From: Thermodesulfobacteriota bacterium
Lineage (GTDB): Bacteria; Desulfobacterota; Desulfobaccia; Desulfobaccales; 0-14-0-80-60-11
Direction of reading: 5' to 3'
DNA: 64,000 nucleotides
Assembly: GCA_049322315.1 (NCBI GenBank)
Contig: JBMORF010000082.1
Location: 128,141-192,140 of the forward strand
Positions 49,098 through 62,621 of this stretch are shown here, piece by piece. The notes beneath the pieces are model-generated. The model was not told where the DNA came from and did not search any database. It saw nothing but the letters and a program-made list of their open reading frames with translations. The stretch's first letter is position 1, and every line of letters starts with the position of its first letter. Made by a program: the position numbers and the translations under genes.

Positions 49098-49973
49098 TTG
49101 GCAAATTTTCACGACTTGCTCCAGTTCATCTTCGCGGGTTTGACCGGCGGCGCCATCTACGCCCTGGTGGCCCTGGGCTTCGGGGTGGTGCACAACACCA
49201 TGGGCATCGTCAACTTCACCCAGGTGGATTTCGTCTCCTTGGGGGGGATGATCCTGTTCAGCGCCCTGTTTGCCGTGGGCCTGCCCATGCCCCTGGCCCT
49301 GGCCGCGGCGGTGGTGGGAGTGACCCTGGTGGCCATCGTCGTGGAGGAAATCGGCGTCCGGCCTTCCCGCTCCCAGAGCCACCTGGTGTTGATCTTCCTG
49401 ACCATCGGGTTGTCCATCATCCTCCGGGGAGTCATGAAGATCATCTGGGGCAAAAACCGCATGGCCGTGCCGCCTTTATCCGGCGAAGCGCCGGTGAAAC
49501 TGTGGGGCGCCACCATCCTGCCCCAGACCCTGTGGATTCTGGCCCTCACCGCCGGGGCCATCGTGCTGTTGGTCCTCTTCTTTCGGAAGACCTCCATGGG
49601 CCTGGCCATGCGGGGGGTGGCCGCCAACGAGGAAGCCGCGGCTACGGTGGGTCTCAAGGTGCGCCGGGTCAAGGCCATGAGTTTCGCCCTGGCCGGGGCC
49701 CTGGGGGGCCTGGCCGGGTGCCTGGTGACCCCCATCACCACGCTTTCTTATGACGTGGGCGTGCTCCTGGGCCTCAAAGGTTTCGCCGCCGCCATTTTAG
49801 GGGGCTTCGGCTCCTTTCCCGGGGCCATTCTGGGGGGCTTGATCCTGGGGCTGCTGGAGACCCTGGGCGCGGCTTATATCAGCAGCGCCTATAAGGACGT
49901 CATCGCCTTTGTGGTGCTGCTGTTGGTGCTCTTTATCCGCCCCCGGGGATTATTGGGTGGGGGAGCAGGGTGA
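49098..49973 (+). CDS. livH: Branched-chain/hydrophobic amino acid ABC transporter permease (LivH-type)
   Basis: 291 aa from a TTG start. FIFAGLTGGAIYALVALGF..VNFTQ and the C-terminus DVIAFVVLLLVLFIRPRGLLG are typical of LivH. Confidence 0.85.
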   Translation: MANFHDLLQFIFAGLTGGAIYALVALGFGVVHNTMGIVNFTQVDFVSLGGMILFSALFAVGLPMPLALAAAVVGVTLVAIVVEEIGVRPSRSQSHLVLIFLTIGLSIILRGVMKIIWGKNRMAVPPLSGEAPVKLWGATILPQTLWILALTAGAIVLLVLFFRKTSMGLAMRGVAANEEAAATVGLKVRRVKAMSFALAGALGGLAGCLVTPITTLSYDVGVLLGLKGFAAAILGGFGSFPGAILGGLILGLLETLGAAYISSAYKDVIAFVVLLLVLFIRPRGLLGGGAG

Positions 49974-49984
49974 GGAGATGTTCC

Positions 49985-50042
49985 GTAGGCGAACCTTGTG
50001 TTCGCCCCGGGGCCCAGGGCGAACACCAGGTTCGCCCCTACG
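49985..50042. repeat. REP-like hairpin doublet (GGCGAAC-N6-TTCGCC type)
   Basis: GTAGGCGAACcttgtgTTCGCCCC (49985..50008) and GGCGAACaccaggTTCGCCCCTAC (50018..50041). The same units occur at 58045..58062 and inside the RAYT ORF (58358..58509). A half-site lies at 25121..25131. Confidence 0.8.
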
Positions 50043-50077
50043 TTTAATCCCGATTTAAATCAAAACCACCAGTGGTA

Positions 50078-50542
50078 ATGCCTAAACATAGCGCCGGATT
50101 ATTGATGTACCGCCACCGGGAAGGCGTCCTGGAAGTTTTCCTGGTACATCCCGGCGGCCCCTTTTGGGCCAAAAAGGACCTGGGCGCCTGGTCTCTGCCC
50201 AAGGGGGAATATAACCCGGAGGAGGACGCCCTGGCCGCGGCCCGGCGGGAGTTTGCCGAAGAAACCGGCTTCGAGGCCGGGGGGGATTTTATTCCTCTCA
50301 CGCCCTTAAAACAGCCCAGCGGCAAAGTCATCGACGCCTGGGCCTTTGCGGGAGACTGCGACCCCGCAGCTATAAAAAGCAACACTTTTGCCCTGGAATG
50401 GCCGCCCCGCTCCGGGAAGCAACAAGAATTCCCGGAGATCGACCGGGCCGGGTGGTTTACCATCGAGGAAGCGAAGGTTAAAATAATCAAGGGGCAGGCG
50501 GGGCTTTTGGAGGAGTTGCAACAGATTTTAAGCCTGCCGTGA
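50078..50542 (+). CDS. NUDIX hydrolase
   Basis: Likely start ATG 50078 (MPKHSAGLLMY). Nudix box GEYNPEEDALAAARREFAEETGF. It is flanked by repeat elements on both sides. Confidence 0.85.
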   Translation: MPKHSAGLLMYRHREGVLEVFLVHPGGPFWAKKDLGAWSLPKGEYNPEEDALAAARREFAEETGFEAGGDFIPLTPLKQPSGKVIDAWAFAGDCDPAAIKSNTFALEWPPRSGKQQEFPEIDRAGWFTIEEAKVKIIKGQAGLLEELQQILSLP

Positions 50543-50543
50543 A

Positions 50544-50637
50544 TAGTTCAAGGTTTAAAGTTCAAGGTTCAAGGTGGAAAAATGCTCAGAAGTATCAGCT
50601 TTTTAACTTTGAACTTTGAACCTTGAACTTTGAACTA
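50544..50637 (+). repeat. Heptad-repeat long hairpin: two 32-nt arms, each made of four tandem 7-mers (GTTCAAG/GTTTAAA), with a 30-nt loop
   Basis: Pairing 50544..50575 with 50606..50637 gives 27 Watson-Crick pairs, 4 G-U pairs and 1 A-C mismatch on the plus-sense RNA. The G-U pairs become C-A mismatches on the other strand. Confidence 0.75.
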
Positions 50638-50657
50638 ATGCCAATGGAAAACAAAAA

Positions 50658-52511
50658 TTGGAACGAAAAGATCAACGAAATCAACGCATCTTAATGGGCA
50701 ACGAGGCCATCGCCCGGGGGCTCATCGAGTCCGGGGTGACTTTGGCCGCGTCTTATCCCGGCACCCCGGCCTCGGAGATCCTCCAGGCCGTGGCCGCGTT
50801 CGCTAAGGAAGAGGCTATTCCCTTGCACGCGGAATGGTCGGTGAATGAGAAAGTGGCCTATGAAACGGCCCTGGCCAACAGCTACACCGGCCGCCGCTCC
50901 GCGGTCTCCATGAAGCAGGTGGGCCTGAACGTGGCCTCCGATCCCTTTCTGCGTTCGGCCTACCTGGGCGTCAAGGGCGGGCTGGTGGTCATCTCGGCGG
51001 ACGACCCCGGCCCCCACAGCTCCCAGACCGAGCAGGATTCCCGCTTCTTTGCCATGTTCGCCAAAGTCCCGGTCTTCGACCCCTCCAGCCCTAAAGAGGC
51101 CAAGGAGATGGTGGATAGGGCCTTTAAGCTCTCGGAAAAATACGAGATGCCGGTGATGCTCCGCCCCACCACCCGGGTCTGCCACGCCCGTCAGAACGTG
51201 CCTCTGGCGACGCCCGAGAGGCTGGAGCGGGTGGCGCATTTCCAGAAGAATCCGGGGCGCTGGTGCGCCACGCCCCAGTATCTTAAGGAACTGCACCGGA
51301 CCTTGAACCAAAAAATCGAGGAGATTGCCGGGGAAGAGGAATTTTATCCCATCCTCACTCCCGGGGACGACTCCTTCCCCGGGGCCTGCATCATCGCCTC
51401 CGGAGTGGCCCTGGCCCACACCTGGGACCTCCTGGAAGAAATGCTCCTGCTGCGGCGCCTCGATCTCTATCAGGTCACCTTGCCCTATCCTTTGCATCAG
51501 GGCTTTATCAAGAATATCAAATCCCGTTATCAGCGGGTCCTGGTCCTGGAGGAGACCTACCCGGTCATCGAACTGCAACTGGCCGGGGACCAGGTCCAGG
51601 GCCGGGGCGCCAAAATGGTCCCCGGAGCCGGAGAGCTGACCCCGGAGGTCATCCGCCTGGCAATCGAGAGATTTTTGCGCCTGCCCCCGGCCCCGGCGTT
51701 GGCGGCCCCTGGCGGAGGAGAGGTCACCCGCCCCACCCTCTGCGCCGGCTGCGGCCACCGGGCGGCATTCTATGCCATTAGGGAGGCGTTCCCGGAGGGC
51801 ATCTTCCCCAGCGACATCGGCTGCTATACTTTGGGGATGAACCTGGGGGCGGTGGACACCTGCCACTGCATGGGCGCGGGCATCAGCCAGGCCGCGGGCT
51901 TCTACCAGGCCTACGTCGCGGCCGGGGAAAAAGTGCCCCCCATTGTAGCCACCATCGGCGATTCCACCTTTTTTCACGCCGGAGTCCCGGCCCTGATTAA
52001 CGCGGTCTTCCACCGGAACCGCTTTATCCTGGTGATCCTGGACAACTCCACCACGGCCATGACCGGCCACCAGCCCACCCCAGAGAAAGAGATTACCGCC
52101 CTGGGAAAACCGGGTAACCCGGTTTACCTGGCGGATCTGGTTAAAGCCTGCGGCGTCCGTTTCTTGAGGGAAGCCGATCCTTACGATATTCCCGGGTTCA
52201 TGTCCCTGCTCCAAGAGGCCGACCGTTATTGCCGGGGGGAAGATGGGAGATTAGCGGTAATCATCGCCAAACACTGTTGCATTCTGGACCGGGAGGCCCG
52301 GAAGAGCCAGCCGGCCTTCAAGGTTATGATTATCGAGGACTGCACCGGCTGCCGCCACTGCCTGGACGATTTTGAATGCCCGGCGCTACACCTGGATGAA
52401 GCCGCCGACCGGGTGGTTATCGATGAGGCCCGTTGTATCGGCTGCGGCGTCTGCGTCCACGTCTGCCCGGGAGGGGCGATTGAAGCGATGGCGAATAGCC
52501 AGGGCCAGTAA
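50658..52511 (+). CDS. iorA: Indolepyruvate:ferredoxin oxidoreductase alpha subunit
   Basis: 617 aa; the start is uncertain (TTG 50658 or ATG 50694). GNEAIARGLIESGV N-terminus. TPP-binding GDSTFFHAG. Two C-terminal 4Fe-4S motifs CTGCRHC..C and CIGCGVCVHVCP. Confidence 0.9.
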   Translation: MERKDQRNQRILMGNEAIARGLIESGVTLAASYPGTPASEILQAVAAFAKEEAIPLHAEWSVNEKVAYETALANSYTGRRSAVSMKQVGLNVASDPFLRSAYLGVKGGLVVISADDPGPHSSQTEQDSRFFAMFAKVPVFDPSSPKEAKEMVDRAFKLSEKYEMPVMLRPTTRVCHARQNVPLATPERLERVAHFQKNPGRWCATPQYLKELHRTLNQKIEEIAGEEEFYPILTPGDDSFPGACIIASGVALAHTWDLLEEMLLLRRLDLYQVTLPYPLHQGFIKNIKSRYQRVLVLEETYPVIELQLAGDQVQGRGAKMVPGAGELTPEVIRLAIERFLRLPPAPALAAPGGGEVTRPTLCAGCGHRAAFYAIREAFPEGIFPSDIGCYTLGMNLGAVDTCHCMGAGISQAAGFYQAYVAAGEKVPPIVATIGDSTFFHAGVPALINAVFHRNRFILVILDNSTTAMTGHQPTPEKEITALGKPGNPVYLADLVKACGVRFLREADPYDIPGFMSLLQEADRYCRGEDGRLAVIIAKHCCILDREARKSQPAFKVMIIEDCTGCRHCLDDFECPALHLDEAADRVVIDEARCIGCGVCVHVCPGGAIEAMANSQGQ

Positions 52512-52576
52512 TCAGTGGTCAGTTTTTCTAGCCATTGATCACTGATGACTGATCACTATCTTTGCCTGGAGTAGTT

Positions 52577-53086
52577 ATGAAACAACAGATAATCGTCAGC
52601 GGCCTGGGGGGCCAGGGAGCCTTGACCATCACCCGGGTTTTGGCGGAGGCCGCCGCGGCCTTGGGGTGTGAGGTCCTCACTTCCGAGACCCACGGCATGG
52701 CCCAACGGGGCGGCACCGTGATCTCCATGATCAAGGTGGGGCCTTTTCGGGGGCCCCTAATTCTCGCCGGCCGGGCAGACGTGGGGTTGTTCCTGCATGC
52801 GAAAAATCTGGGGGTGCATCGCTTTTATCTGCGACGCAGCGCCGGGCTTTTTGTCAATGCCGAGGTTCCCGGGGACTACCACAGCGTGGACGCCGGGAGT
52901 CTGGCCCGGCAACTGGGCGCGCCCGTGGCCGCCAACCTCATCCTCCTGGGTTATGCGGCCGGTAAAGGCGGGCTCTTTTGCGGTACGGACCTCCTGGAGC
53001 AAGTCATCCGGGAAAAAACCCCGGCTCGGTTCCGGAAAATAAACCTTAAAGCGTTGCATACCGGGATGGACGCGGCCACGGCCTGA
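52577..53086 (+). CDS. iorB: Indolepyruvate:ferredoxin oxidoreductase beta subunit
   Basis: Likely start ATG 52577 (MKQQIIVSGLGGQGALTITRVLA). 169 aa, directly downstream of iorA. Confidence 0.85.
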   Translation: MKQQIIVSGLGGQGALTITRVLAEAAAALGCEVLTSETHGMAQRGGTVISMIKVGPFRGPLILAGRADVGLFLHAKNLGVHRFYLRRSAGLFVNAEVPGDYHSVDAGSLARQLGAPVAANLILLGYAAGKGGLFCGTDLLEQVIREKTPARFRKINLKALHTGMDAATA

Positions 53087-53137
53087 AACGGCCTGCAAAG
53101 CAACCATTCTCGGGAGGAAATGCCCATAACACATCTT

Positions 53138-53159
53138 AACCTTGAACTTTAAACCTTGA
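53138..53159 (-). repeat. 22-nt exact inverted copy of part of the heptad-repeat hairpin arm
   Basis: AACCTTGAACTTTAAACCTTGA is the exact reverse complement of 50548..50569. Together the two elements bracket iorAB. Confidence 0.8.
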
Positions 53160-53188
53160 GATAGTGATTTCTGCGAAAGCGCCTTTTT

Positions 53189-53328
53189 TGTCATCCTGAA
53201 TGAAGCGAAGGATCTCGGATTTTAGCGCTCGGAATTCCCAAATTGGGGGTAATAATCGGCGCGGCCTGGAAAAGCCATGCTACCAAAAACGAGATTCTTC
53301 CCTCCGCTTCGCTCCGTTCAGAATGACA
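53189..53328. repeat. Inverted-repeat pair (TGTCATCCTGAATGAAGCGAAGGATCTCG ... CGAGATTCTTCC[CTCCGC]TTCGCTCCGTTCAGAATGACA) enclosing about 70 nt; MITE-like or a structured RNA
   Basis: Left arm 53189..53217, right arm 53290..53328. The arms are complementary apart from transitions and a short insertion in the right arm. A related arm is at 31186..31212. Confidence 0.65.
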
Positions 53329-53392
53329 GAAGAGGAACTGTCGCAGAGGTCTCAACTATGAACTCACAAATCAAGCGAAGGAGACCTAGAGC

Positions 53393-53590
53393 ATGGAAGA
53401 ATGTCCCCGGCAAGAAAAGAATTTAGCCTATTGCAACTGTAGCTATGGTTCCTGCGACAAAAAGGGGATCTGCTGCGAGTGCCTCCACTACCACCGGAAA
53501 ATGGGGGAACTGCCGGCGTGTTATTTTACCCCGGAGGTGGAACGGACTTATGATCGCAGTATTGCCCGCTTTATAAAATCATCCCGGTAG
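53393..53590 (+). CDS. Small Cys-rich protein (8 Cys; CNC..C..CCEC pattern), function unknown
   Basis: 65 aa: [45 protein letters not shown]... It looks like a conserved small metal-binding protein. It lies 16 nt upstream of livM. Confidence 0.6.
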
Positions 53591-53606
53591 AGGGAGAAGA
53601 CGCGGC

Positions 53607-54620
53607 ATGAGGGGTTGGGAAAAAGCAAAGTTATTTGCCCTCCGCCACCGCACCGGCCTCACGGTCTGGGTCCTGGCCGGGATTCTGCTGGTGACGCCCC
53701 TGGTGGTCAACAACCCTTATAATTTAGGGATTCTCAACCTCATCGGCGTTTACGTCATCGTCGTCCTGGGCCTCAACCTGTTCATCGGCTATGCGGGCCA
53801 GATTTCTCTGGGGCATGCGGCGTTCTTCGGTTTGGGGGCCTATGGCTCCGCCATCCTCACCGCCACCTATCATTTCCCAGCCTGGCCCGTTATGGCCTTG
53901 ATCGCCGTGGTGATGGCATTGGTGGCCCTGGCCCTGGGGGTGCCCACCCTCAGGCTCACCGGCCACTATCTGGCCATGGCCACCCTGGGCTTCAACTACG
54001 TGGTGAGCAGCATCTTCGTGCAATGGGATGACGTCACCGGCGGGCCTGCCGGCCTCTCCGGGGTGCCGCCCCTCTCCCTTTTCGGCTTCACCTTTGACAG
54101 CGACGTCAAGTTTCACTACCTGGTATGGACCTTTGCCCTGGTGGCCCTGACGTTGTGCCTGAACCTGGTTAGGAGCGGCGTGGGCCGGGGTCTGGCCGCC
54201 CTGGCCCAGGACGAGGTGGCCGCGGCCACCTTCGGGGTTAACGTGCAGCGGGACAAGGTGCGGGTTTTTGTGCTCTCCGCGGTTTTCGCCTCCCTGGGCG
54301 GGAGCCTCTATGCCCACTACTTCGGCTACGTCAACCCGGAAGCTTTCAGCATCTTTAAATCTCTGGACCTGGTCATCATGGTGGTGGTGGGAGGGTTGGG
54401 GTCCATCTGGGGCACTCTTTTCGGGGTGGGCTTTATTGTCATTCTCCCCCATCTGGTTGATTTTTTCGAAACTTATTACGACATTATCCACGGGGTGATT
54501 TTGGTGGTGATCCTCCTTTTCTTGCCCCAGGGTTTTATCACCGGCTTGATGGACCTGATCAAGATTCGCCTGGCCCGGCGCCGCCTTGCGGCCCCGGTGG
54601 AAGCCGAGACAAGTCGATAA
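53607..54620 (+). CDS. livM: Branched-chain/hydrophobic amino acid ABC transporter permease (LivM-type)
   Basis: 337 aa. NLFIGYAGQISLGHAAFFGLGAYG is typical of LivM. Confidence 0.9.
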   Translation: MRGWEKAKLFALRHRTGLTVWVLAGILLVTPLVVNNPYNLGILNLIGVYVIVVLGLNLFIGYAGQISLGHAAFFGLGAYGSAILTATYHFPAWPVMALIAVVMALVALALGVPTLRLTGHYLAMATLGFNYVVSSIFVQWDDVTGGPAGLSGVPPLSLFGFTFDSDVKFHYLVWTFALVALTLCLNLVRSGVGRGLAALAQDEVAAATFGVNVQRDKVRVFVLSAVFASLGGSLYAHYFGYVNPEAFSIFKSLDLVIMVVVGGLGSIWGTLFGVGFIVILPHLVDFFETYYDIIHGVILVVILLFLPQGFITGLMDLIKIRLARRRLAAPVEAETSR

Positions 54621-54647
54621 GGTATTCACCCCGGAAACCTAGAAATT

Positions 54648-55424
54648 ATGAACCACACCCTTCTGGAGATAACCAACCTCAGCAAACACTTCGGGGGCCT
54701 GCCGGCCCTGTCGGAGGTGAGTTTCCGGGCGGCCCGGGGCCAGGTCACGGCCCTCATCGGCCCCAACGGCGCCGGCAAAACCACCCTGCTCCATTGTCTT
54801 TCCGGGGTGATCAAGCCGGATGCCGGGGAGATCATCTTCGACGGCCGCGACCTCGCCGGCATGTCCGCCCACCGGGTGGCCCAGTTGGGGATTTCCCGCA
54901 CCTTCCAAAATCTCCGTCTCTTTCCCCGGCTGTCAGTCCTGGACAACGTCCTCTGCGGCCTCACCGTCCAGGCCGGGGATTCCCTGCTGGACGCCCTGCT
55001 CCGGTTGCCGGGCCTGCGCAACCGGGAACGGCGGCTGCGGCTTACAGCCCTGGAGACCCTGGACAGTTTCGGCCTGGCGGATAAGGCGGCCCTGCCCGCG
55101 GGCGTGCTGCCTTATGGAGACAAAAAAAGAGTGGAAATGGCCCGGGCCTTCGTCTCCCAGCCGGTTTTGACCTTACTGGATGAGCCGGTCGCCGGCCTCA
55201 ATCCCGAAGAGACCGCCCAGATTGCCGCACTAATTCGCCAAATGCGCGTCTACGGGAAGACCATGCTCCTGGTGGAGCACGACATGGAGATGGTTATGGG
55301 GGTGTCGGACCGGGTAGTGGTCCTGGATGGCGGCTGCCGCATCGCTGCGGGCAGCCCCGATGAGGTGCGGATCAATCCCCTGGTGCTGGAGGCCTACCTG
55401 GGCCGCATGAGCGCCACCGCTTGA
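54648..55424 (+). CDS. livG: ABC transporter ATP-binding protein (LivG-type)
   Basis: 258 aa. Walker A GPNGAGKTT, signature YGDKKRVEMARA, Walker B LLDEPVAGL. Confidence 0.9.
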   Translation: MNHTLLEITNLSKHFGGLPALSEVSFRAARGQVTALIGPNGAGKTTLLHCLSGVIKPDAGEIIFDGRDLAGMSAHRVAQLGISRTFQNLRLFPRLSVLDNVLCGLTVQAGDSLLDALLRLPGLRNRERRLRLTALETLDSFGLADKAALPAGVLPYGDKKRVEMARAFVSQPVLTLLDEPVAGLNPEETAQIAALIRQMRVYGKTMLLVEHDMEMVMGVSDRVVVLDGGCRIAAGSPDEVRINPLVLEAYLGRMSATA

Positions 55425-57887: not shown

Positions 57888-58103
57888 ATGATGGTCCCGT
57901 GGCTATTGGTGGATACAAGCGTGATAGTGGATTATCTTCGGAACCTTGATGAAAATGGGGCTTATCTAGAGGCGCAGGCTGAAGCCCTTCCTTTTCCACC
58001 ATCACCATGGCGAAACTCTATGCCGAGATGTGGGAGGAACGCTGGGCGAACACAAGGTTCGCAACGTTGGCAATGCGAATGGTTGATCCCTTATGATGAC
58101 TAA
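57888..58103 (+). pseudogene. vapC: Decayed PIN-domain (VapC-type) toxin gene: frameshifted and truncated
   Basis: The N-terminus LLVDTSVIVDYLR carries the first PIN acidic residue. The expected ..STITMAKLYAEM.. segment is only readable in another frame after about 57990. Similarity ends at the REP unit at 58045..58062. The ORF is 71 aa, whereas PIN toxins are usually about 130 aa. Confidence 0.65.
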
Positions 58104-58791
58104 ATTAGCTGAAAAGCGGCGGCGTTCCATCCGCATACAGGGATGGGATTATTCCCAGGACGGGGCTTATTTCGTTACGGTTTGCACCCATAATAAAGAA
58201 TACCTTTTCGGAGATATTGTCGGGGATTTAATGCATCTCAATGCCCCTGGAGAGATGGTTCTTCAGACCTGGGAGGAATTACCGGCGCGATTTCCGGCCA
58301 TGGAACTGGACGCCATGGTCCTCATGCCCAACCATTTCCATGCAATCGCAGTCATTCGTAGGGGCGAACCTTGTGTTCGCCCTGAGCGCCCCGAATCTGG
58401 TTTAAGCCCGGAACCTGGTGTTCGCCCCTCTTCCACGCCCCTCGAAGATATTAGGCATATTAACCTTGGCGATCACCCGGACCAGGGCGATCACAAGGAT
58501 CGCCCCTACAGGAAACGCCCACAAGGGACAGGGGCGGAATCAATTGGGCGCATCGTCCAGGCGTTTAAATCCCTAACTACCCACCGATATATTCAGGGCA
58601 TACGGAAATCCGGCTGGCCGCCATTTAAGGGAAAGTTATGGCAGCGCAACTATTTCGAACGGATCATCAGAGATGAGAATGAATGGGAGCGCATTTCCGA
58701 ATACATTGCAGCCAACCCTGTGAATTGGGCGTTGGATCGGGAGAACCGGGAGGCGGGGAAGGTTAGGGCGGGGGAACCGTGGCAGGTGTAG
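58093..58791 (+). CDS. REP-associated tyrosine transposase-like protein (IS200/IS605 Y1 HUH family, RAYT-type) with a REP-derived insert
   Basis: 232 aa. WDYSQDGAYFVTVCT, the HUH motif MPNHFHAI, and the catalytic Tyr region LWQRNYFERIIRDE. Residues about 88-148 are encoded by three REP-like units (58358..58509). Confidence 0.85.
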   Translation: MMTKLAEKRRRSIRIQGWDYSQDGAYFVTVCTHNKEYLFGDIVGDLMHLNAPGEMVLQTWEELPARFPAMELDAMVLMPNHFHAIAVIRRGEPCVRPERPESGLSPEPGVRPSSTPLEDIRHINLGDHPDQGDHKDRPYRKRPQGTGAESIGRIVQAFKSLTTHRYIQGIRKSGWPPFKGKLWQRNYFERIIRDENEWERISEYIAANPVNWALDRENREAGKVRAGEPWQV

Positions 58792-58846
58792 AAATGGTAG
58801 GGAAGCAGTACCCATTTTACGTCTGTTTACCATATAATTGAAGATT

Positions 58847-59434
58847 ATGGAAGATGATATTCGCATTTCCTGGGAAAGGTTTTTAAACCCTGATGTTTTG
58901 AGAACTAATTTAATAGTGGCTTCGCTATATATAACTGCATTTGAAATGCTAAAAGAAAGTATAATAGAACGACCAAAAGAATATTTCTCAGTAGGTTATG
59001 ATAAAAATGGTCTAATTGTTGATGAAAAATATAATATAAAAGTATTGAGTTTAAATAAAAGTCCGCTTTATGCATCTTTATCTTGGCTAAAAGATATGGA
59101 TGCAATAGATAGTAATGATATAGATATTTTTGATAAAATTATAAAATGCAGAAACGACATAACCCATGAAATTGTTAATTATATTTCAAAAGGAGTGAAG
59201 ACTGATCCACTTCCACTTTTTAATTCAACGATAGACCTATTGCACAAAATTGAAAAATGGTGGATTCTAAATATAGAGATAGCTATTAATCCGGAACTGA
59301 ATGAAAAAGAAGTTAAAGAGGATGAAATTGTTCCTGGTAAAATCATGATTCTGCGCTTGCTTTTGGATATAGCATTGGGGTCTGAAAAAGAATCAAGACT
59401 CTATTACAATGAGTTTATTAAAAAGCATGATTAA
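58847..59434 (+). CDS. AT-rich foreign ORF, all-alpha-looking, with a candidate HEPN RNase motif (RNDITH)
   Basis: 195 aa from ATG 58847. Hand counts of 17 and 22 G+C per 60 nt at 58921 and 58861, against 44 per 60 at 59521. The motif KCRNDITHEI fits the HEPN Rx4-6H pattern with Asn after Arg. Its 3' end overlaps the livF start by 26 nt. Confidence 0.55.
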   Translation: MEDDIRISWERFLNPDVLRTNLIVASLYITAFEMLKESIIERPKEYFSVGYDKNGLIVDEKYNIKVLSLNKSPLYASLSWLKDMDAIDSNDIDIFDKIIKCRNDITHEIVNYISKGVKTDPLPLFNSTIDLLHKIEKWWILNIEIAINPELNEKEVKEDEIVPGKIMILRLLLDIALGSEKESRLYYNEFIKKHD

Positions 59435-61538
59435 AGATAATATTGAAACCCTACTCCACATCTCCAACCTTACCGTCCATTATGGGGCGGCGCAGGCGTT
59501 GTTTGGGGTGTCGCTCTCCGTGGGCCGGGGGGAGACGGTGGCCCTGGTGGGGGCCAATGGGGCGGGGAAGACCAGTCTCTTGAAGGCGGTGATGGGGTTG
59601 GCGCCGCCTTCCGGGGGGCAGATTCTCCTGGAGGGGGAGGACGTCACCGGCTCTACCCCTGCGGCCATGGCGGCCCGGGGGGTGGCTTTGGTCCCCGAGG
59701 GGCGGGAGATGTTCGGAGACCTGACGGTCAAGGAGAATTTGGAGTTGGGGGTTCTGGCCCTGAATATTAGCCGGGGGGAAATGCAGAGCCGTCTGGAGGA
59801 GGTCTTCAGCCGCTTCCCCAAGCTGAAGGAGCGCAGCAAGCAACGCAGCAACACCCTGTCCGGCGGGGAGCAGCAGATGGTGGCCATGGGCCGGGCCTTG
59901 ATGGCTAAACCCCGGCTCCTGCTCCTGGATGAGCCCTCTTTGGGCCTGGCGCCCTTGATTACTGACGAAATCTTTGAGATTATCAAACAACTCACCCGGG
60001 CCGGGGTGACCATCCTCTTGGTGGAGCAAAACGCGGCCCGGGCCTTGACCGCGTCCAAATCCGCCTATTTGCTGGCCAACGGCAAGATCGTGGGCCAGGG
60101 CCGGAGCGACAAGCTCCTGCTGGACCCGGAACTGCGCCGGGCCTTTTTGGGCGCGGGCTCCGGCGACAACCCCGCGGCTTCCCGCCTGGGCGCAGCCGGA
60201 CTTACTAATATCAGACTGGAAAAACCGGATATGAGCAAACTGACTTTTATGCCTCCCTTTAAAACCAGGGAAGAACTTGAGGAACATCAGCTTCAACGCC
60301 TGAAGTGGAGCATACGCCACGCCTTCGAAGGCTCCAGCTTCTACCGGGCCCATCTGGAGGCTGCCGGCGTCACCCCCGGCGACATCCGCTCTCTGGACGA
60401 CCTGCAAAAACTTCCCCTGACCACCGCCGACGACCTCCGGGACGGCTATCCCTTCCCTTTCCGGGCCGTGCCCTTCGAGCAGATCGTGCGTATCCACGCC
60501 TCCTCCGGCACCACCGGCAAGCGCAAAATTCTGGGCTACACCCAAAAGGACCTGGACGACTGGGAGCATTTCTTCGCCCGGGCCTACGAGATGGCCGGGG
60601 TCACGCCTTTGGACCGGGTGCAAATCGCGGTGGGCTACGGGGTGTGGACCGCGGGCGCGGGCTTCCAGGCGGGGGTGGAAAAATTGGGAGCCCTGGCCGT
60701 ACCCGTGGGGCCGGGGAACGTGGACATGCACTGCGAGTTTCTGGTGGACCTGCAAAGCACGGTGCTCTGCTGCACCGCCTCCATGGGGTTGCTCATGGCC
60801 GAAGAGGTAAATAAGCGGGGCATCGCCGACAAGATCAACCTCCAAAAAGTCATCTACGGCTCGGAGCGCTCCAGCGTCTCCATGCGCCGTAAGATCTCGG
60901 AACTCCTGGGGGGCGTGGAACTCTTCGACATCCCCGGCATGACCGAACTCTACGGGCCGGGCACCGGCATCGAGTGCCCGGATCACGACTGCATCCACTA
61001 CTGGGCGGACTACTACCTCCTGGAAATCCTGGACCCGGAGACGTTGCAACCCCTGCCCGAGGGCGAATGGGGGGAGATGGTGGTGACCACCCTCACCAAG
61101 GAGGCCGCGCCCTTGCTCCGCTACCGCACCCGGGACATCACCCGCATCATCCCCGGGCCTTGCACCTGCGGGTCCATCCTTCCCCGGCATTCCCGCCTCC
61201 GGGGCCGCACCGACGATATGTTCAAGTTCCGGGCGGTGAACATCTACCCCTCCAGCATCGACAAGATTCTCTCGGAGGTGCCGGGCTTAGGCTCCGAATA
61301 CCAGATCCACCTGACCCGGGAGGCCGGGGGCCGGGACCACATGCTGCTGAAGGTGGAGCGGGGCGAAGGGGTGGAACCGGGCCGGGCCGATGAACTGGGC
61401 CGGGAGATCATTTACACGGTCAAACACAAACTTCTGGTCACCCCGGAGGTGGAGGTGGTGGAGTACGGCGCCCTGCCCCGGACGGACCGGAAGAGCAAGA
61501 GAGTTTTTGATACCAGGATAACTGATTCGGTAGTGTAA
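59409..61538 (+). CDS. In-frame fusion ORF: LivF-type ABC ATPase (aa 1-248), 26-aa linker, then phenylacetate-CoA ligase (PaaK, from Met275 at nt 60231)
   Basis: 709 aa with no stop between the modules. LivF part: GANGAGKTS, LSGGEQQMVAMGRAL, LLLDEPSLGLAP, ..RRAFLG. PaaK part: EEHQLQRLKWSIRHAF..FYRAHL, IHASSGTTGKRK, YGPGTGIEC. Confidence 0.8.
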   Translation: MSLLKSMIKDNIETLLHISNLTVHYGAAQALFGVSLSVGRGETVALVGANGAGKTSLLKAVMGLAPPSGGQILLEGEDVTGSTPAAMAARGVALVPEGREMFGDLTVKENLELGVLALNISRGEMQSRLEEVFSRFPKLKERSKQRSNTLSGGEQQMVAMGRALMAKPRLLLLDEPSLGLAPLITDEIFEIIKQLTRAGVTILLVEQNAARALTASKSAYLLANGKIVGQGRSDKLLLDPELRRAFLGAGSGDNPAASRLGAAGLTNIRLEKPDMSKLTFMPPFKTREELEEHQLQRLKWSIRHAFEGSSFYRAHLEAAGVTPGDIRSLDDLQKLPLTTADDLRDGYPFPFRAVPFEQIVRIHASSGTTGKRKILGYTQKDLDDWEHFFARAYEMAGVTPLDRVQIAVGYGVWTAGAGFQAGVEKLGALAVPVGPGNVDMHCEFLVDLQSTVLCCTASMGLLMAEEVNKRGIADKINLQKVIYGSERSSVSMRRKISELLGGVELFDIPGMTELYGPGTGIECPDHDCIHYWADYYLLEILDPETLQPLPEGEWGEMVVTTLTKEAAPLLRYRTRDITRIIPGPCTCGSILPRHSRLRGRTDDMFKFRAVNIYPSSIDKILSEVPGLGSEYQIHLTREAGGRDHMLLKVERGEGVEPGRADELGREIIYTVKHKLLVTPEVEVVEYGALPRTDRKSKRVFDTRITDSVV

Positions 61539-61714
61539 CTTTTCAAGGTTGCATGCGAAGAGTTTAACCAAAGGGACACAGGGGTCGAAGAAGATTTGAT
61601 CGGTCCACAAGCAGGATTATTCATCATGCCCATCTTTTTGTATCCTTTGTGTCTTTGTGGTAAAAGCATTATAGATAATGAATTCCTTACCAAATTTGGA
61701 GGCTTAGGACAAAA

Positions 61715-62056
61715 ATGACCGGTCCAAAGACGGTCGCGAGAGATGATGACCCGGTGCTGCATGAAATCCTGCGCCGCCTCGTGGAGACTTTTCAACCGGA
61801 TCGGGTTTATCTTTTCGGGTCCAAGGCCAGAAGTGAAGCAGGGCCGGACAGCGATTACGATCTGCTGATCGTGGTTCCGGATGAAGCTCCCCCGGAAAAG
61901 AAGCGGAGCCGTTTGGCCTATCAGGCCTTGCGGGGCACCCGGGCCGCAGCGGATGTTTTGGTATGGACCCGGGAGGCCTTTGACAGCCGCCTGCACCTTC
62001 CCGCTTCACTGCCCGCGACGATCACTAGAGAAGGAAAGCTTCTTTATGCCGCTTGA
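61715..62056 (+). CDS. Minimal nucleotidyltransferase (MNT-type antitoxin)
   Basis: 113 aa. VYLFGSKARSEAGPDSDYDLLIVV is the GSx10-DxD nucleotidyltransferase motif. It overlaps the HEPN gene by 11 nt. Confidence 0.85.
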   Translation: MTGPKTVARDDDPVLHEILRRLVETFQPDRVYLFGSKARSEAGPDSDYDLLIVVPDEAPPEKKRSRLAYQALRGTRAAADVLVWTREAFDSRLHLPASLPATITREGKLLYAA

Positions 62057-62459
62057 CCCGGTGTTAGTGGCAGAAACCAAGGCCTGGCTGCGGAAAGCGG
62101 CTTCCGATCTCAGGGCTGCTCAGCATGACCTGACCGCTTCTCCTCCGCTTCTGGATGATGCCACATTCCACTGCCAGCAGACCGTGGAAAAAATGTTTAA
62201 AGGCTTCCTCATGTGGCACGGTGTCCCTTTTCGCAAGACCCACAGCCTGGAGGAACTTGGCGAGCAATGCCTTGACCTGGACGCCTCGTTGAGAGATATG
62301 ATGGACAGGGCAGTTCCCTTAACTGAGTTCGCCTGGAAGTTTCGCTATCCCGGGGAGCCAGAGGAACCATCCATTCAAGAAGTACAAGAGGCATTGGAGA
62401 TCGCCCGGGAGGTTCATGGGGCAATTCTGGCAAGACTACCTCTGGAAGTTCAGACTTAG
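62046..62459 (+). CDS. HEPN-domain protein (toxin partner of MNT)
   Basis: Likely start ATG 62046 (MPLDPVLVAETKAWLRKAASDLRAA). The HEPN signature context is FRKTHSLEELGEQC. Track ORF 61881..62459 over-extends the 5' end. Confidence 0.85.
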   Translation: MPLDPVLVAETKAWLRKAASDLRAAQHDLTASPPLLDDATFHCQQTVEKMFKGFLMWHGVPFRKTHSLEELGEQCLDLDASLRDMMDRAVPLTEFAWKFRYPGEPEEPSIQEVQEALEIAREVHGAILARLPLEVQT

Positions 62460-62480: not shown

Positions 62481-62579
62481 CTGGTCGCCCTGGAGGTGGT
62501 GGAGTACGGCGCCCTGCCCCGGACGGACCGGAAGAGCAAACGGGTTTTTGATACCCGGATCACGGATTCCGTGGTATAA
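62481..62579 (+). pseudogene. paaK: Orphan 3' fragment of paaK (last 32 codons plus stop), displaced by the MNT-HEPN cassette
   Basis: It reads LVALEVVEYGALPRTDRKSKRVFDTRITDSVV*, nearly identical in protein to the end of the intact ORF (61434..61538). It has a 48-nt identical core. All 9 downstream nt differences are synonymous. Confidence 0.85.
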
Positions 62580-62621
62580 ATTATTAAAATTGGAGGCGGA
62601 CGCCTCTTAAGGGAGTTAACC

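Follow-up and report, generated by a model that had tools for sequence, protein, structure and literature searches.

A likely HEPN-like gene, probably of integron-cassette origin, overlaps the start of livF-paaK in a Desulfobaccales genome

We analysed a stretch of 64,000 nt from a Thermodesulfobacteriota bacterium of the Desulfobaccales (assembly GCA_049322315.1, contig JBMORF010000082.1, positions 128,141 to 192,140), referred to as the window, in which the gene order is livH, iorA, iorB, livM, livG, an island of ~4 kb, an AT-rich open reading frame (ORF), livF-paaK and an MNT-HEPN pair. The AT-rich ORF, which overlaps the start of livF-paaK, is the subject of this report. It extends from an ATG at 58847 to a TAA at 59434 (+ strand), as defined by the ORF list, its composition and its homologues, and encodes a stand-alone, likely HEPN-like (DUF4145-like) protein of 195 amino acids (aa). 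A TTG at 58838 was rejected as start codon as the homologues begin with M-E/D-D-D, making ATG 58847 the preferred start. The GC content of the ORF is 0.293, with 0.219 at third codon positions (GC3), and that of the remaining window is 0.573. Calculated over 100 nt at a time, the GC content amounts to 0.23-0.36 over ~58800-59450 and to 0.5-0.75 on both flanks, and this block is the sole stretch of more than 500 nt with a GC content below 0.42 in the 64 kb. The low-GC run extends beyond the stop codon of the ORF as far as ~59450. The protein contains the string KCRNDITHEI, in which R102-N-D-I-T-H107 (codons at 59150 to 59167, + strand) is a candidate Rx4H active-site motif, identified by its invariance in family alignments and its position in an AlphaFold2 (AF2) model. 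A preliminary description of this DNA had reported the AT-rich block and its extension to ~59450, an Rx4-6H motif in KCRNDITHEI, the lack of an antitoxin-like partner and a livF start inside the ORF, all of which are borne out here and in the comparisons below.

The downstream gene, livF-paaK (59427 to 61538, + strand), is a fusion encoding an ABC ATPase and a phenylacetate-CoA-ligase-like domain, as identified by Pfam and NCBIfam. Its reading frame comprises 703 aa from the ATG at 59427 or 709 aa from an in-frame ATG at 59409, both of which lie inside the AT-rich ORF. As 59409 is ACG in the related locus L003 and the product called on four related contigs has 703 aa, equivalent to a start at 59427, translation of livF almost certainly begins at ATG 59427, which overlaps the stop codon of the ORF by 8 nt. 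The earlier proposal that the insert donated the first 14 livF codons, which requires the upstream ATG, thus does not hold. DNA alignment with L001 and L003, together with an alignment of the ORF tail with cassette relatives and L005, defines an overlap zone at 59427 to 59440 (+ strand), with the livF ATG at 59427-59429, the window's stop codon TAA at 59432-59434 and the TAA of the relatives two codons later, at 59438-59440; the window carries a TCC/TCA to TAA change. The overlap probably measured 14 nt before the window lineage, and 6 of the 16 low-GC bases that follow the ORF in the window are explained by the earlier stop.

An identical protein has already been deposited as a hypothetical protein of a Thermodesulfobacteriota metagenome-assembled genome (MAG). 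We collected 258 homologues, nearly all 194-202 aa long, and a profile search of 1.84 billion cluster representatives gave 1447 matches at E <= 1e-3 and 1003 at E <= 1e-10, all single-domain proteins and almost all of ~200 aa (~197 aa in a typical member). R102, N103, H107 and W138/W139 are invariant in 37 aligned family sequences, and in 47 sequences at 30-49% identity R102 and W138 are still invariant, with H107, D91, K134 and W139 conserved in at least 90%. The family is uncurated, as Pfam, NCBIfam, PADLOC and PHROG models all fail to capture it. No MNT or other antitoxin gene is adjacent to the ORF in any of ~90 loci, where the neighbours vary from locus to locus; defence-type neighbours are a type III restriction system, TerB/BrxC genes and an AbiJ gene. 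A conserved partner gene was considered and rejected, the upstream proteins of 113 aa (L003) and 119 aa (L005) being without mutual similarity. A phage origin was rejected as well, the search of 2.9 million viral contigs having given only four weak-to-moderate relatives of the ORF; they are encoded on the IMG/VR contigs L176-L179 and are 38-51% identical to the ORF product.

For a survey of cassettes we retrieved 80 metagenome loci with the family alignment. A large proportion of these have their TAA stop embedded in ACTTAAC or ATATAAC, corresponding to the inverse core RYYYAAC, and an imperfect palindrome of 60-127 nt that ends in GCGTTA(T/G) lies 3' of the stop in these cassette relatives. 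Within these hairpins TAAC pairs with GTTA and one arm carries one-base bulges, as is typical of attC anatomy, and at least 15 distinct attC-type hairpins directly follow the stop codon in family loci. On the 5' side, GTTATATGC of a neighbouring site is located ~20 nt ahead of the ATG in L097, L098, L100, L101, L102 and L106, and GTTATATGC plus 10-11 nt precede the ATG in cassette relatives. Five loci (L134, L144, L156, L161, L163) contain multiple attC-like sites, and cassette-borne family members are alone in their cassette, with no second gene. These sites were called by a custom hairpin-anchored scan, which gives no E-values and for which GC-rich coding sequence yields background matches; a covariance model was abandoned as no consensus structure fit for use emerged when 11 attC sites were aligned with MAFFT. 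One family member, P0117, occurs as an identical protein in at least three contexts, among them a Shewanella chromosome and contigs beside TerB/BrxC genes. It is 100% identical throughout L089-L094 and L133-L175, where it is found in the Shewanella inventionis chromosome, beside uvrC/pgsA and beside TerB/BrxC genes, and its attC is the same in every context (TAACAAGCGCATG...GCGGGCGTTA). We take this attC to resemble the repeats of Vibrio/Shewanella chromosomal integrons. The result that the ORF family is single-gene integron cassette cargo in many other bacteria is new and, judged from these sequences, well supported, and the nearest relatives outside the livF-linked clade are bona fide cassettes. 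Phage-defence genes, those for solo HEPN proteins included, are known to be stored in integron cassettes (PMC3710099).

At the window locus traces of a cassette are sparse. No attC is present directly 3' of the ORF, where the livF coding sequence follows at once, and an attC-like scan of 55-64 kb of the window found nothing convincing in the island. Neither an attC nor an integrase nor a clear GTT crossover was seen in the window, in which no screen was aimed at tyrosine recombinases, and this weighs against a cassette origin; the cassette route is therefore deduced from the relatives together with a 7-nt motif in the short 5' leader of the ORF (accATATAATTGAAGATT, 58826 to 58846, + strand), which we compared with cassette leaders. 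In L003 this region reads TTATATGG, including TTATATG at the exact cassette offset, the corresponding motif being ATATAAT in the window and TTATGG in L001; the base ahead of TT in these livF-linked motifs is not G. The L003 leader matches cassette leaders at 11-12 of 19 positions, as compared to 7 of 19 for the native upstream regions of livF. As the TTATATG lies at the cassette offset and the leader shows this degree of identity, a cassette origin is favoured, and the leader at 58826-58846 is probably a remnant of the cassette 5' boundary. accATATAATTGAAGATT can also be read as a -10-like TATAAT box 8 nt ahead of the ATG; a promoter and terminator scan around the ORF gave no signal above the shuffled expectation.

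The protein carries further marks of a HEPN relationship besides the motif. Weak matches to DUF4145 were obtained for 32 of 37 relatives, and other weak matches among them are to HEPN_Cthe2314, RiboL-PSP, Apea, HepT, MAE_28990 and Swt1. All weak Pfam matches are to HEPN-clan families, cover residues ~70-116 and are co-linear on the motif. The best DUF4145 match, that of the relative P0060, reaches 21.0 bits (gathering threshold 23.1) and aligns residues 72-109 to profile positions 35-72. An AF2 model calculated from the family alignment (pLDDT 90.5, pTM 0.86) is all-alpha save for a small hairpin and places R102-H107 at the C-terminal end of a helix comprising residues 89-107, followed by helices 109-115 and 121-147. 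In HEPN domains the Rx4-6H motif is located at the end of helix 3 or the start of the loop to helix 4 of an alpha-helical bundle (PMC3710099), with which the predicted placement would agree. DUF4145 has been assigned to the HEPN clan by Anantharaman et al. (PMC3710099), and in the defence protein RAZR its function as an RNase domain has experimental support (PMC13017515). Several results speak against a HEPN assignment. The sole Pfam match of the window protein itself is to HEPN_Cthe2314 with an E-value of 0.079, with no DUF4145 match at E <= 1, and no HEPN model reaches its own curated threshold in any family member tested. The top match of the AF2 model in a Foldseek search of the PDB, Csm6, is not significant (E 0.58), no match was found in a viral structure library, and comparison by hhalign with the alignment for the classical HEPN (PF05168) present in the window gave a probability of 0.1%. 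Searches of PDB sequences with two family profiles returned spurious matches or none, NCBIfam contained no match for the window protein, and PADLOC gave a weak match to Csx1 (E 0.0065). PHROGs yielded no match for the window protein and two weak matches of unknown function among the 37 relatives. The HEPN claim of the preliminary description is plausible and is supported by the motif and the weak HEPN-clan matches; the fold search and the profile comparison added no significant match. Taken together, the AT-rich ORF protein is likely HEPN-like and closest to DUF4145, suggesting a divergent branch of the HEPN superfamily.

The arrangement of the ORF and livF is found in three lineages, namely the window, L001/L002 with an ORF 85% identical and L003/L004/L009 with an ORF 82% identical; the upstream gene in L003/L004/L009 differs from that of the other loci. 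Among the three livF-linked orthologues the ratio of non-synonymous to synonymous divergence (dN/dS) is 0.18-0.21, and the dS of the ORF (0.35-0.59) is similar to that of livF in the same genome pairs (0.50-0.64), so that the ORF-livF arrangement is old. These values indicate that the ORF is under purifying selection and has been inherited alongside livF for a long time. GC3 is 0.22-0.29 in the three copies (window 58847-59434, L001 1477-2070, L003 473-1066) in hosts of ~60% GC, and despite a synonymous divergence of 0.35-0.59 that matches the adjacent livF no amelioration of the ORF is seen.

The ORF lies in a segment of variable content. In more distant relatives livG (54648 to 55424 in the window, + strand, identified by Pfam) directly abuts livF, its stop codon abutting or overlapping the livF start in L013 and L016-L023, and the content of the livG-livF gap varies within the Desulfobaccales-like clade: L010 and L011 have a divergent gene for a CxxCxxCC protein, and L012 has genes for TetR, acyl-CoA dehydrogenase and EtfBA. 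The most informative comparison is with L180, whose LivF is 89% identical to that of the window and in which the whole island is syntenic. Here the place of the window ORF is taken by a frameshifted DUF4238 gene of low GC content (0.26-0.38) together with 150 nt, and the blastn homology of the two loci ends at 58791, the stop of an IS200/RAYT-like gene, and restarts at 59460. The different AT-rich cargo in L180 therefore defines the segment beside livF as a slot with alternative AT-rich cargo. The left border of this slot is the IS200/RAYT-like Y1 transposase gene (58093 to 58791, + strand; Pfam Y1_Tnp, 23.7 bits at a cut-off of 23; HUH motif NHFHAI). Its homologue in L180 was detected by blastn, and the 204-aa upstream gene of L001 has the same 3' end and stop. 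The left edge is marked by a degenerate hairpin with TTAC that follows the transposase stop at 58796 to 58819 (+ strand) and is well formed in L003 (GGTGGGCGATGCCCACC-CTAC).

With moderate confidence we favour the reading that the ORF is a cassette-derived, selected HEPN-like gene that lost its attC and was fused to livF at a shared ATG. A copy derived from a cassette would have entered the variable slot between the RAYT-transposase/hairpin unit and livF-paaK in the common ancestor of the window MAG and no fewer than two sister lineages. The simplest further step would be a deletion whose ends met at the shared ATG, the CAT-G of the K-K-H tail of the ORF being the ATG of livF, and the same deletion would have removed the attC. 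As a result, the ORF would end out of frame within the native livF leader, and livF would retain its own eight-residue leader. A deletion at the shared ATG is proposed because it fits both the native-looking leader and the K-K-H tail.

The leader in question, MIKDNIET, is encoded by eight AT-rich codons (59427 to 59450, + strand) and was delimited with the leaders of ORF-less relatives and a permutation test; the alignment to the NCBIfam LivF model begins at residue 14 of the 709-aa reading. In the preliminary description the native livF 5' end had been replaced by the insert. ORF-less relatives, however, have an eight-residue leader before LL-x-I-x-NL as well, MIADKKEP in several of them and MIANKREP, MIADKKDP, MMVNKKDT, MMADKKAP or MIADKPEP in others, with MTITADKNDV in L180. 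The leaders in ORF-bearing loci (MIKDNIET, MIPNKIDT, MNQHNIEP) are equal to these in length and have I2, D/N4, K/N5, E/D7 and P/T8 in common with them, and for the best match to ORF-less leaders relative to random AT-rich 7-mers P is 0.002 (L001), 0.03 (window) and 0.25 (L003). As leader length and pattern are the same where the ORF is absent, the livF leader looks native rather than donated, and donation is not supported beyond a possibly shared ATG. The ORF-less relatives, to which the preliminary description had looked for the same N-terminal extension, thus provide one that is close in length and pattern, although less AT-rich, the GC content of the first eight livF codons being ~48% in these relatives vs 19-24% in ORF-bearing loci; native leaders are already A/T-rich at third positions. 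The livF ATG lies within the K-K-H codons of the ORF (AAA AAG CAT G), and AAAAAACATG of this tail is also found in family member P0008 at an unrelated locus, homology stopping after AAAAAACATG; the livF start codon may hence be shared with, or derived from, the ORF. Since the signals of the ORF tail and the livF leader overlap within 14 nt in three orthologues, the junction does not appear to be placeable more finely than 59427-59440. The proposed analogy to paaK fails as regards mechanism, as the paaK 3' end is duplicated around the MNT-HEPN pair, whereas no such duplication was found for the livF 5' end.

Alternatively, the insert could have brought its complete 3' end, with the stop at 59438-59440, and supplied the livF ATG and about the first four codons, the native start being deleted. 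The ORF product of L001 and L003 has 197 aa, the usual length of the family, and its stop aligns with the cassette stop; in addition, the CAT-G of the K-K-H tail in P0008 stands outside any livF context, and the low GC content of the first eight livF codons would follow from donation. The CAT-G in P0008 is evidence for the deletion at the shared ATG too. The usual length and the low GC content count against that deletion, since part of the ORF tail may itself be native, the junction then lying 3' of the ATG, and a native leader accounts for its AT-richness solely by drift or selection. Donation, however, leaves the equal leader length and the five positions shared with ORF-less leaders to be accounted for, two of which (2 and 4) fall within the part supposedly donated. 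Moreover, Ser at ORF residue 196 is encoded by TCN codons vs AGC in cassettes, making the similarity of the tails weak, and the 14-codon version is excluded by the ACG in L003. On balance we regard a donated livF start as unlikely. A similarly low probability is given to a history with no cassette arrival at all, in which homologous recombination or a RAYT/REP-associated swap in a defence-island-like slot introduced the ORF and the 5' motif is a coincidence or a promoter. Such a swap would agree with a slot that begins right after the transposase gene and the hairpin-CTAC element, with the other AT-rich gene without attC in L180, with TATATAAT, which ORF-less relatives also carry 11-15 nt ahead of the livF ATG, and with the missing attC and integrase signals noted above. 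It does not readily explain TTATATG at the exact cassette offset in L003, the leader identity of 11-12 vs 7 of 19 positions or the bona fide cassettes as closest kin beyond the livF clade, and no second copy of the hairpin is present in the window.

The activity of the protein has to be weighed in the same way. By analogy, the ORF protein is most likely a latent, dimeric HEPN-type RNase in which dimerisation would build the active site, and a putative RNase triggered by phage or stress would fit a role in abortive infection or defence. Instead, the R-N-x3-H motif might serve nucleotide or protein binding, the protein might be regulatory or act in anti-defence, or its HEPN-like fold might be non-catalytic as in some MNT partners. 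The sub-threshold HEPN models, the insignificant structural matches and the negative hhalign result agree with this, and if the RNase were toxic at all times, a cassette that holds this one gene and no antitoxin could hardly be maintained. Yet R is invariant and H nearly invariant over more than 1,000 clusters, every weak match is to a HEPN-clan family and co-linear on the motif, and solo HEPN proteins that are inactive until triggered are documented, namely an AbiU2-type cassette protein and RAZR (PMC13017515). We therefore judge a function other than RNase to be rather unlikely.

Since ORF and livF overlap by 8 nt, no Shine-Dalgarno sequence and no terminator lie between them and a TATAAT stands 8 nt before the ATG of the ORF, it is probable, as judged from the anatomy of the locus, that transcripts of the ORF extend into livF-paaK and that translation of livF-paaK is coupled to that of the ORF. 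If so, clean loss of the ORF would be costly. A stronger version, which we consider doubtful, is that a selfish cassette is locked in: both transcription and translation initiation of livF-paaK would require the cassette gene, the passenger would be protected by selection on its host gene, and its extreme AT-richness (GC3 0.22-0.29) would be actively maintained beside a GC-rich host gene despite a synonymous divergence of ~0.35-0.6. If true, cassette genes would have a general way of becoming fixed inside operons that has so far not been described.

Further observations concern the surroundings of the ORF. Upstream of livF in ORF-less relatives (L010 1819-1853; L011, L025, L026; L180), TATATAAT or TATATAAA is located only 5-11 nt ahead of the ATG with no Shine-Dalgarno sequence, which suggests that their livF mRNA is leaderless or has a very short leader. 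LivF and a PaaK-type CoA ligase form one frame of 695-703 aa in 17 loci (L001, L003, L010-L026 set), ranging from Desulfobaccales to Geobacteraceae and Desulfosarcina; L180 is the sole locus with livF and paaK split, 92 nt being absent relative to the window. The DUF4238 gene of L180 (4064-4851) is present in pieces of 158 aa and 118 aa with weak matches to PADLOC DUF4238-Pers; between it and livF lie 150 nt and a TATATAAA box. The hairpin with CTAC or TTAC is also found at ~430-455 in L003 and at 4021-4041 in L180 and looks REP-like; a REP family for the hairpin at 58796-58819 was rejected as the consensus had no further copies in the window beyond chance. The ~4-kb island contains small ORFs, an RHH gene, a PIN fragment and the RAYT/IS200-like gene. 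The PIN-like ORF (57888-58103) follows the RHH gene, encodes 71 aa without Pfam match and extends into the 5' end of the RAYT-like gene; the corresponding position is occupied by a full PIN gene of 128 aa in L001 and by none in L180. RHH gene and PIN fragment appear to be a decaying RHH-PIN toxin-antitoxin module. At 49098-55424 of the window the liv genes are interleaved with genes for an indolepyruvate:ferredoxin oxidoreductase (livH, iorA, iorB, livM, livG), which fits an operon for uptake and degradation of aromatic amino acids ending in livF-paaK. Finally, a 108-nt direct repeat of the paaK 3' end (61450-61557 and 62491-62598, 85% identical) brackets the MNT (61715-62056) and HEPN (61881-62459) genes, and the same duplication is found in L180; it looks as if the pair had inserted into paaK at its 3' end, which was regenerated in the process.

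With more than 1,000 clusters at 50% identity, a HEPN-type catalytic motif, frequent occurrence as single-gene cassette cargo and no curated model, the ORF family is a ready candidate for the phage-defence screens now run on cassette libraries. The locus provides what is probably a concrete case of a cassette-type gene fixed outside an integron, without attC and overlapping the start of a conserved host gene, and the gene has been kept for long by purifying selection without drift to the base composition of the host. It also teaches caution, as low GC content across the beginning of a gene is no proof of a donated start, N-terminal leaders being AT-rich anyway.

Among known systems, the ORF family is most similar to DUF4145 (PF13643) and to RAZR (PD-T7-4), with which it shares an all-alpha domain and, close together at a helix end, a conserved Arg and a conserved His. 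As for DUF4145, family members are also found in defence contexts (type III restriction-modification, BREX/TerB, AbiJ). In contrast to DUF4145, all members tested are below the Pfam cut-off, and whereas DUF4145 proteins occur as fusions with zinc-finger, restriction endonuclease or helicase domains, members of the ORF family consist of ~197 aa alone, with a KIEKWW helix and a small beta-hairpin. The 'Integron cassette HEPN' (Anantharaman et al. 2013, PDB 3jrt; PMC3710099) is likewise a solo HEPN-type protein and the single gene of an integron cassette, and its family has been proposed to be a stress- or defence-related RNase (PMC3710099). Two profiles of the ORF family run over all PDB sequences gave no match to 3jrt at E <= 10, and the top 50 Foldseek matches do not include it; moreover, the 3jrt family is reported from Gammaproteobacteria, whereas the ORF family spans Desulfobacterota, Shewanella and many metagenomes.

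HEPN-MNT type II/VII toxin-antitoxin systems, such as the pair at 61715-62459 of the window, have in common with the ORF the HEPN-type motif, the small size and the association with mobile islands. They differ in that the ORF family has no adjacent antitoxin in ~90 loci and showed no similarity to the window's PF05168 HEPN in the profile comparison. With respect to the arrangement in the chromosome, the locus resembles the attG/SALIN insertions of Loot et al. (bioRxiv 10.1101/2022.09.11.507474), in which a lone cassette-type gene lies in the chromosome beside a host promoter or gene, and can be expressed there, with no visible integron. IntI-mediated insertion at genomic sites is documented by these authors, the attC being retained. 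A SALIN is characterised by its retained attC, so that the window locus, which has none, is not a SALIN in that sense, and the GWT crossover described there is not recognisable at the window locus. The fusion of a cassette-type gene by its 3' end to the start codon of its neighbour, as seen in the window, was not found in the abstract and two sections of that paper.

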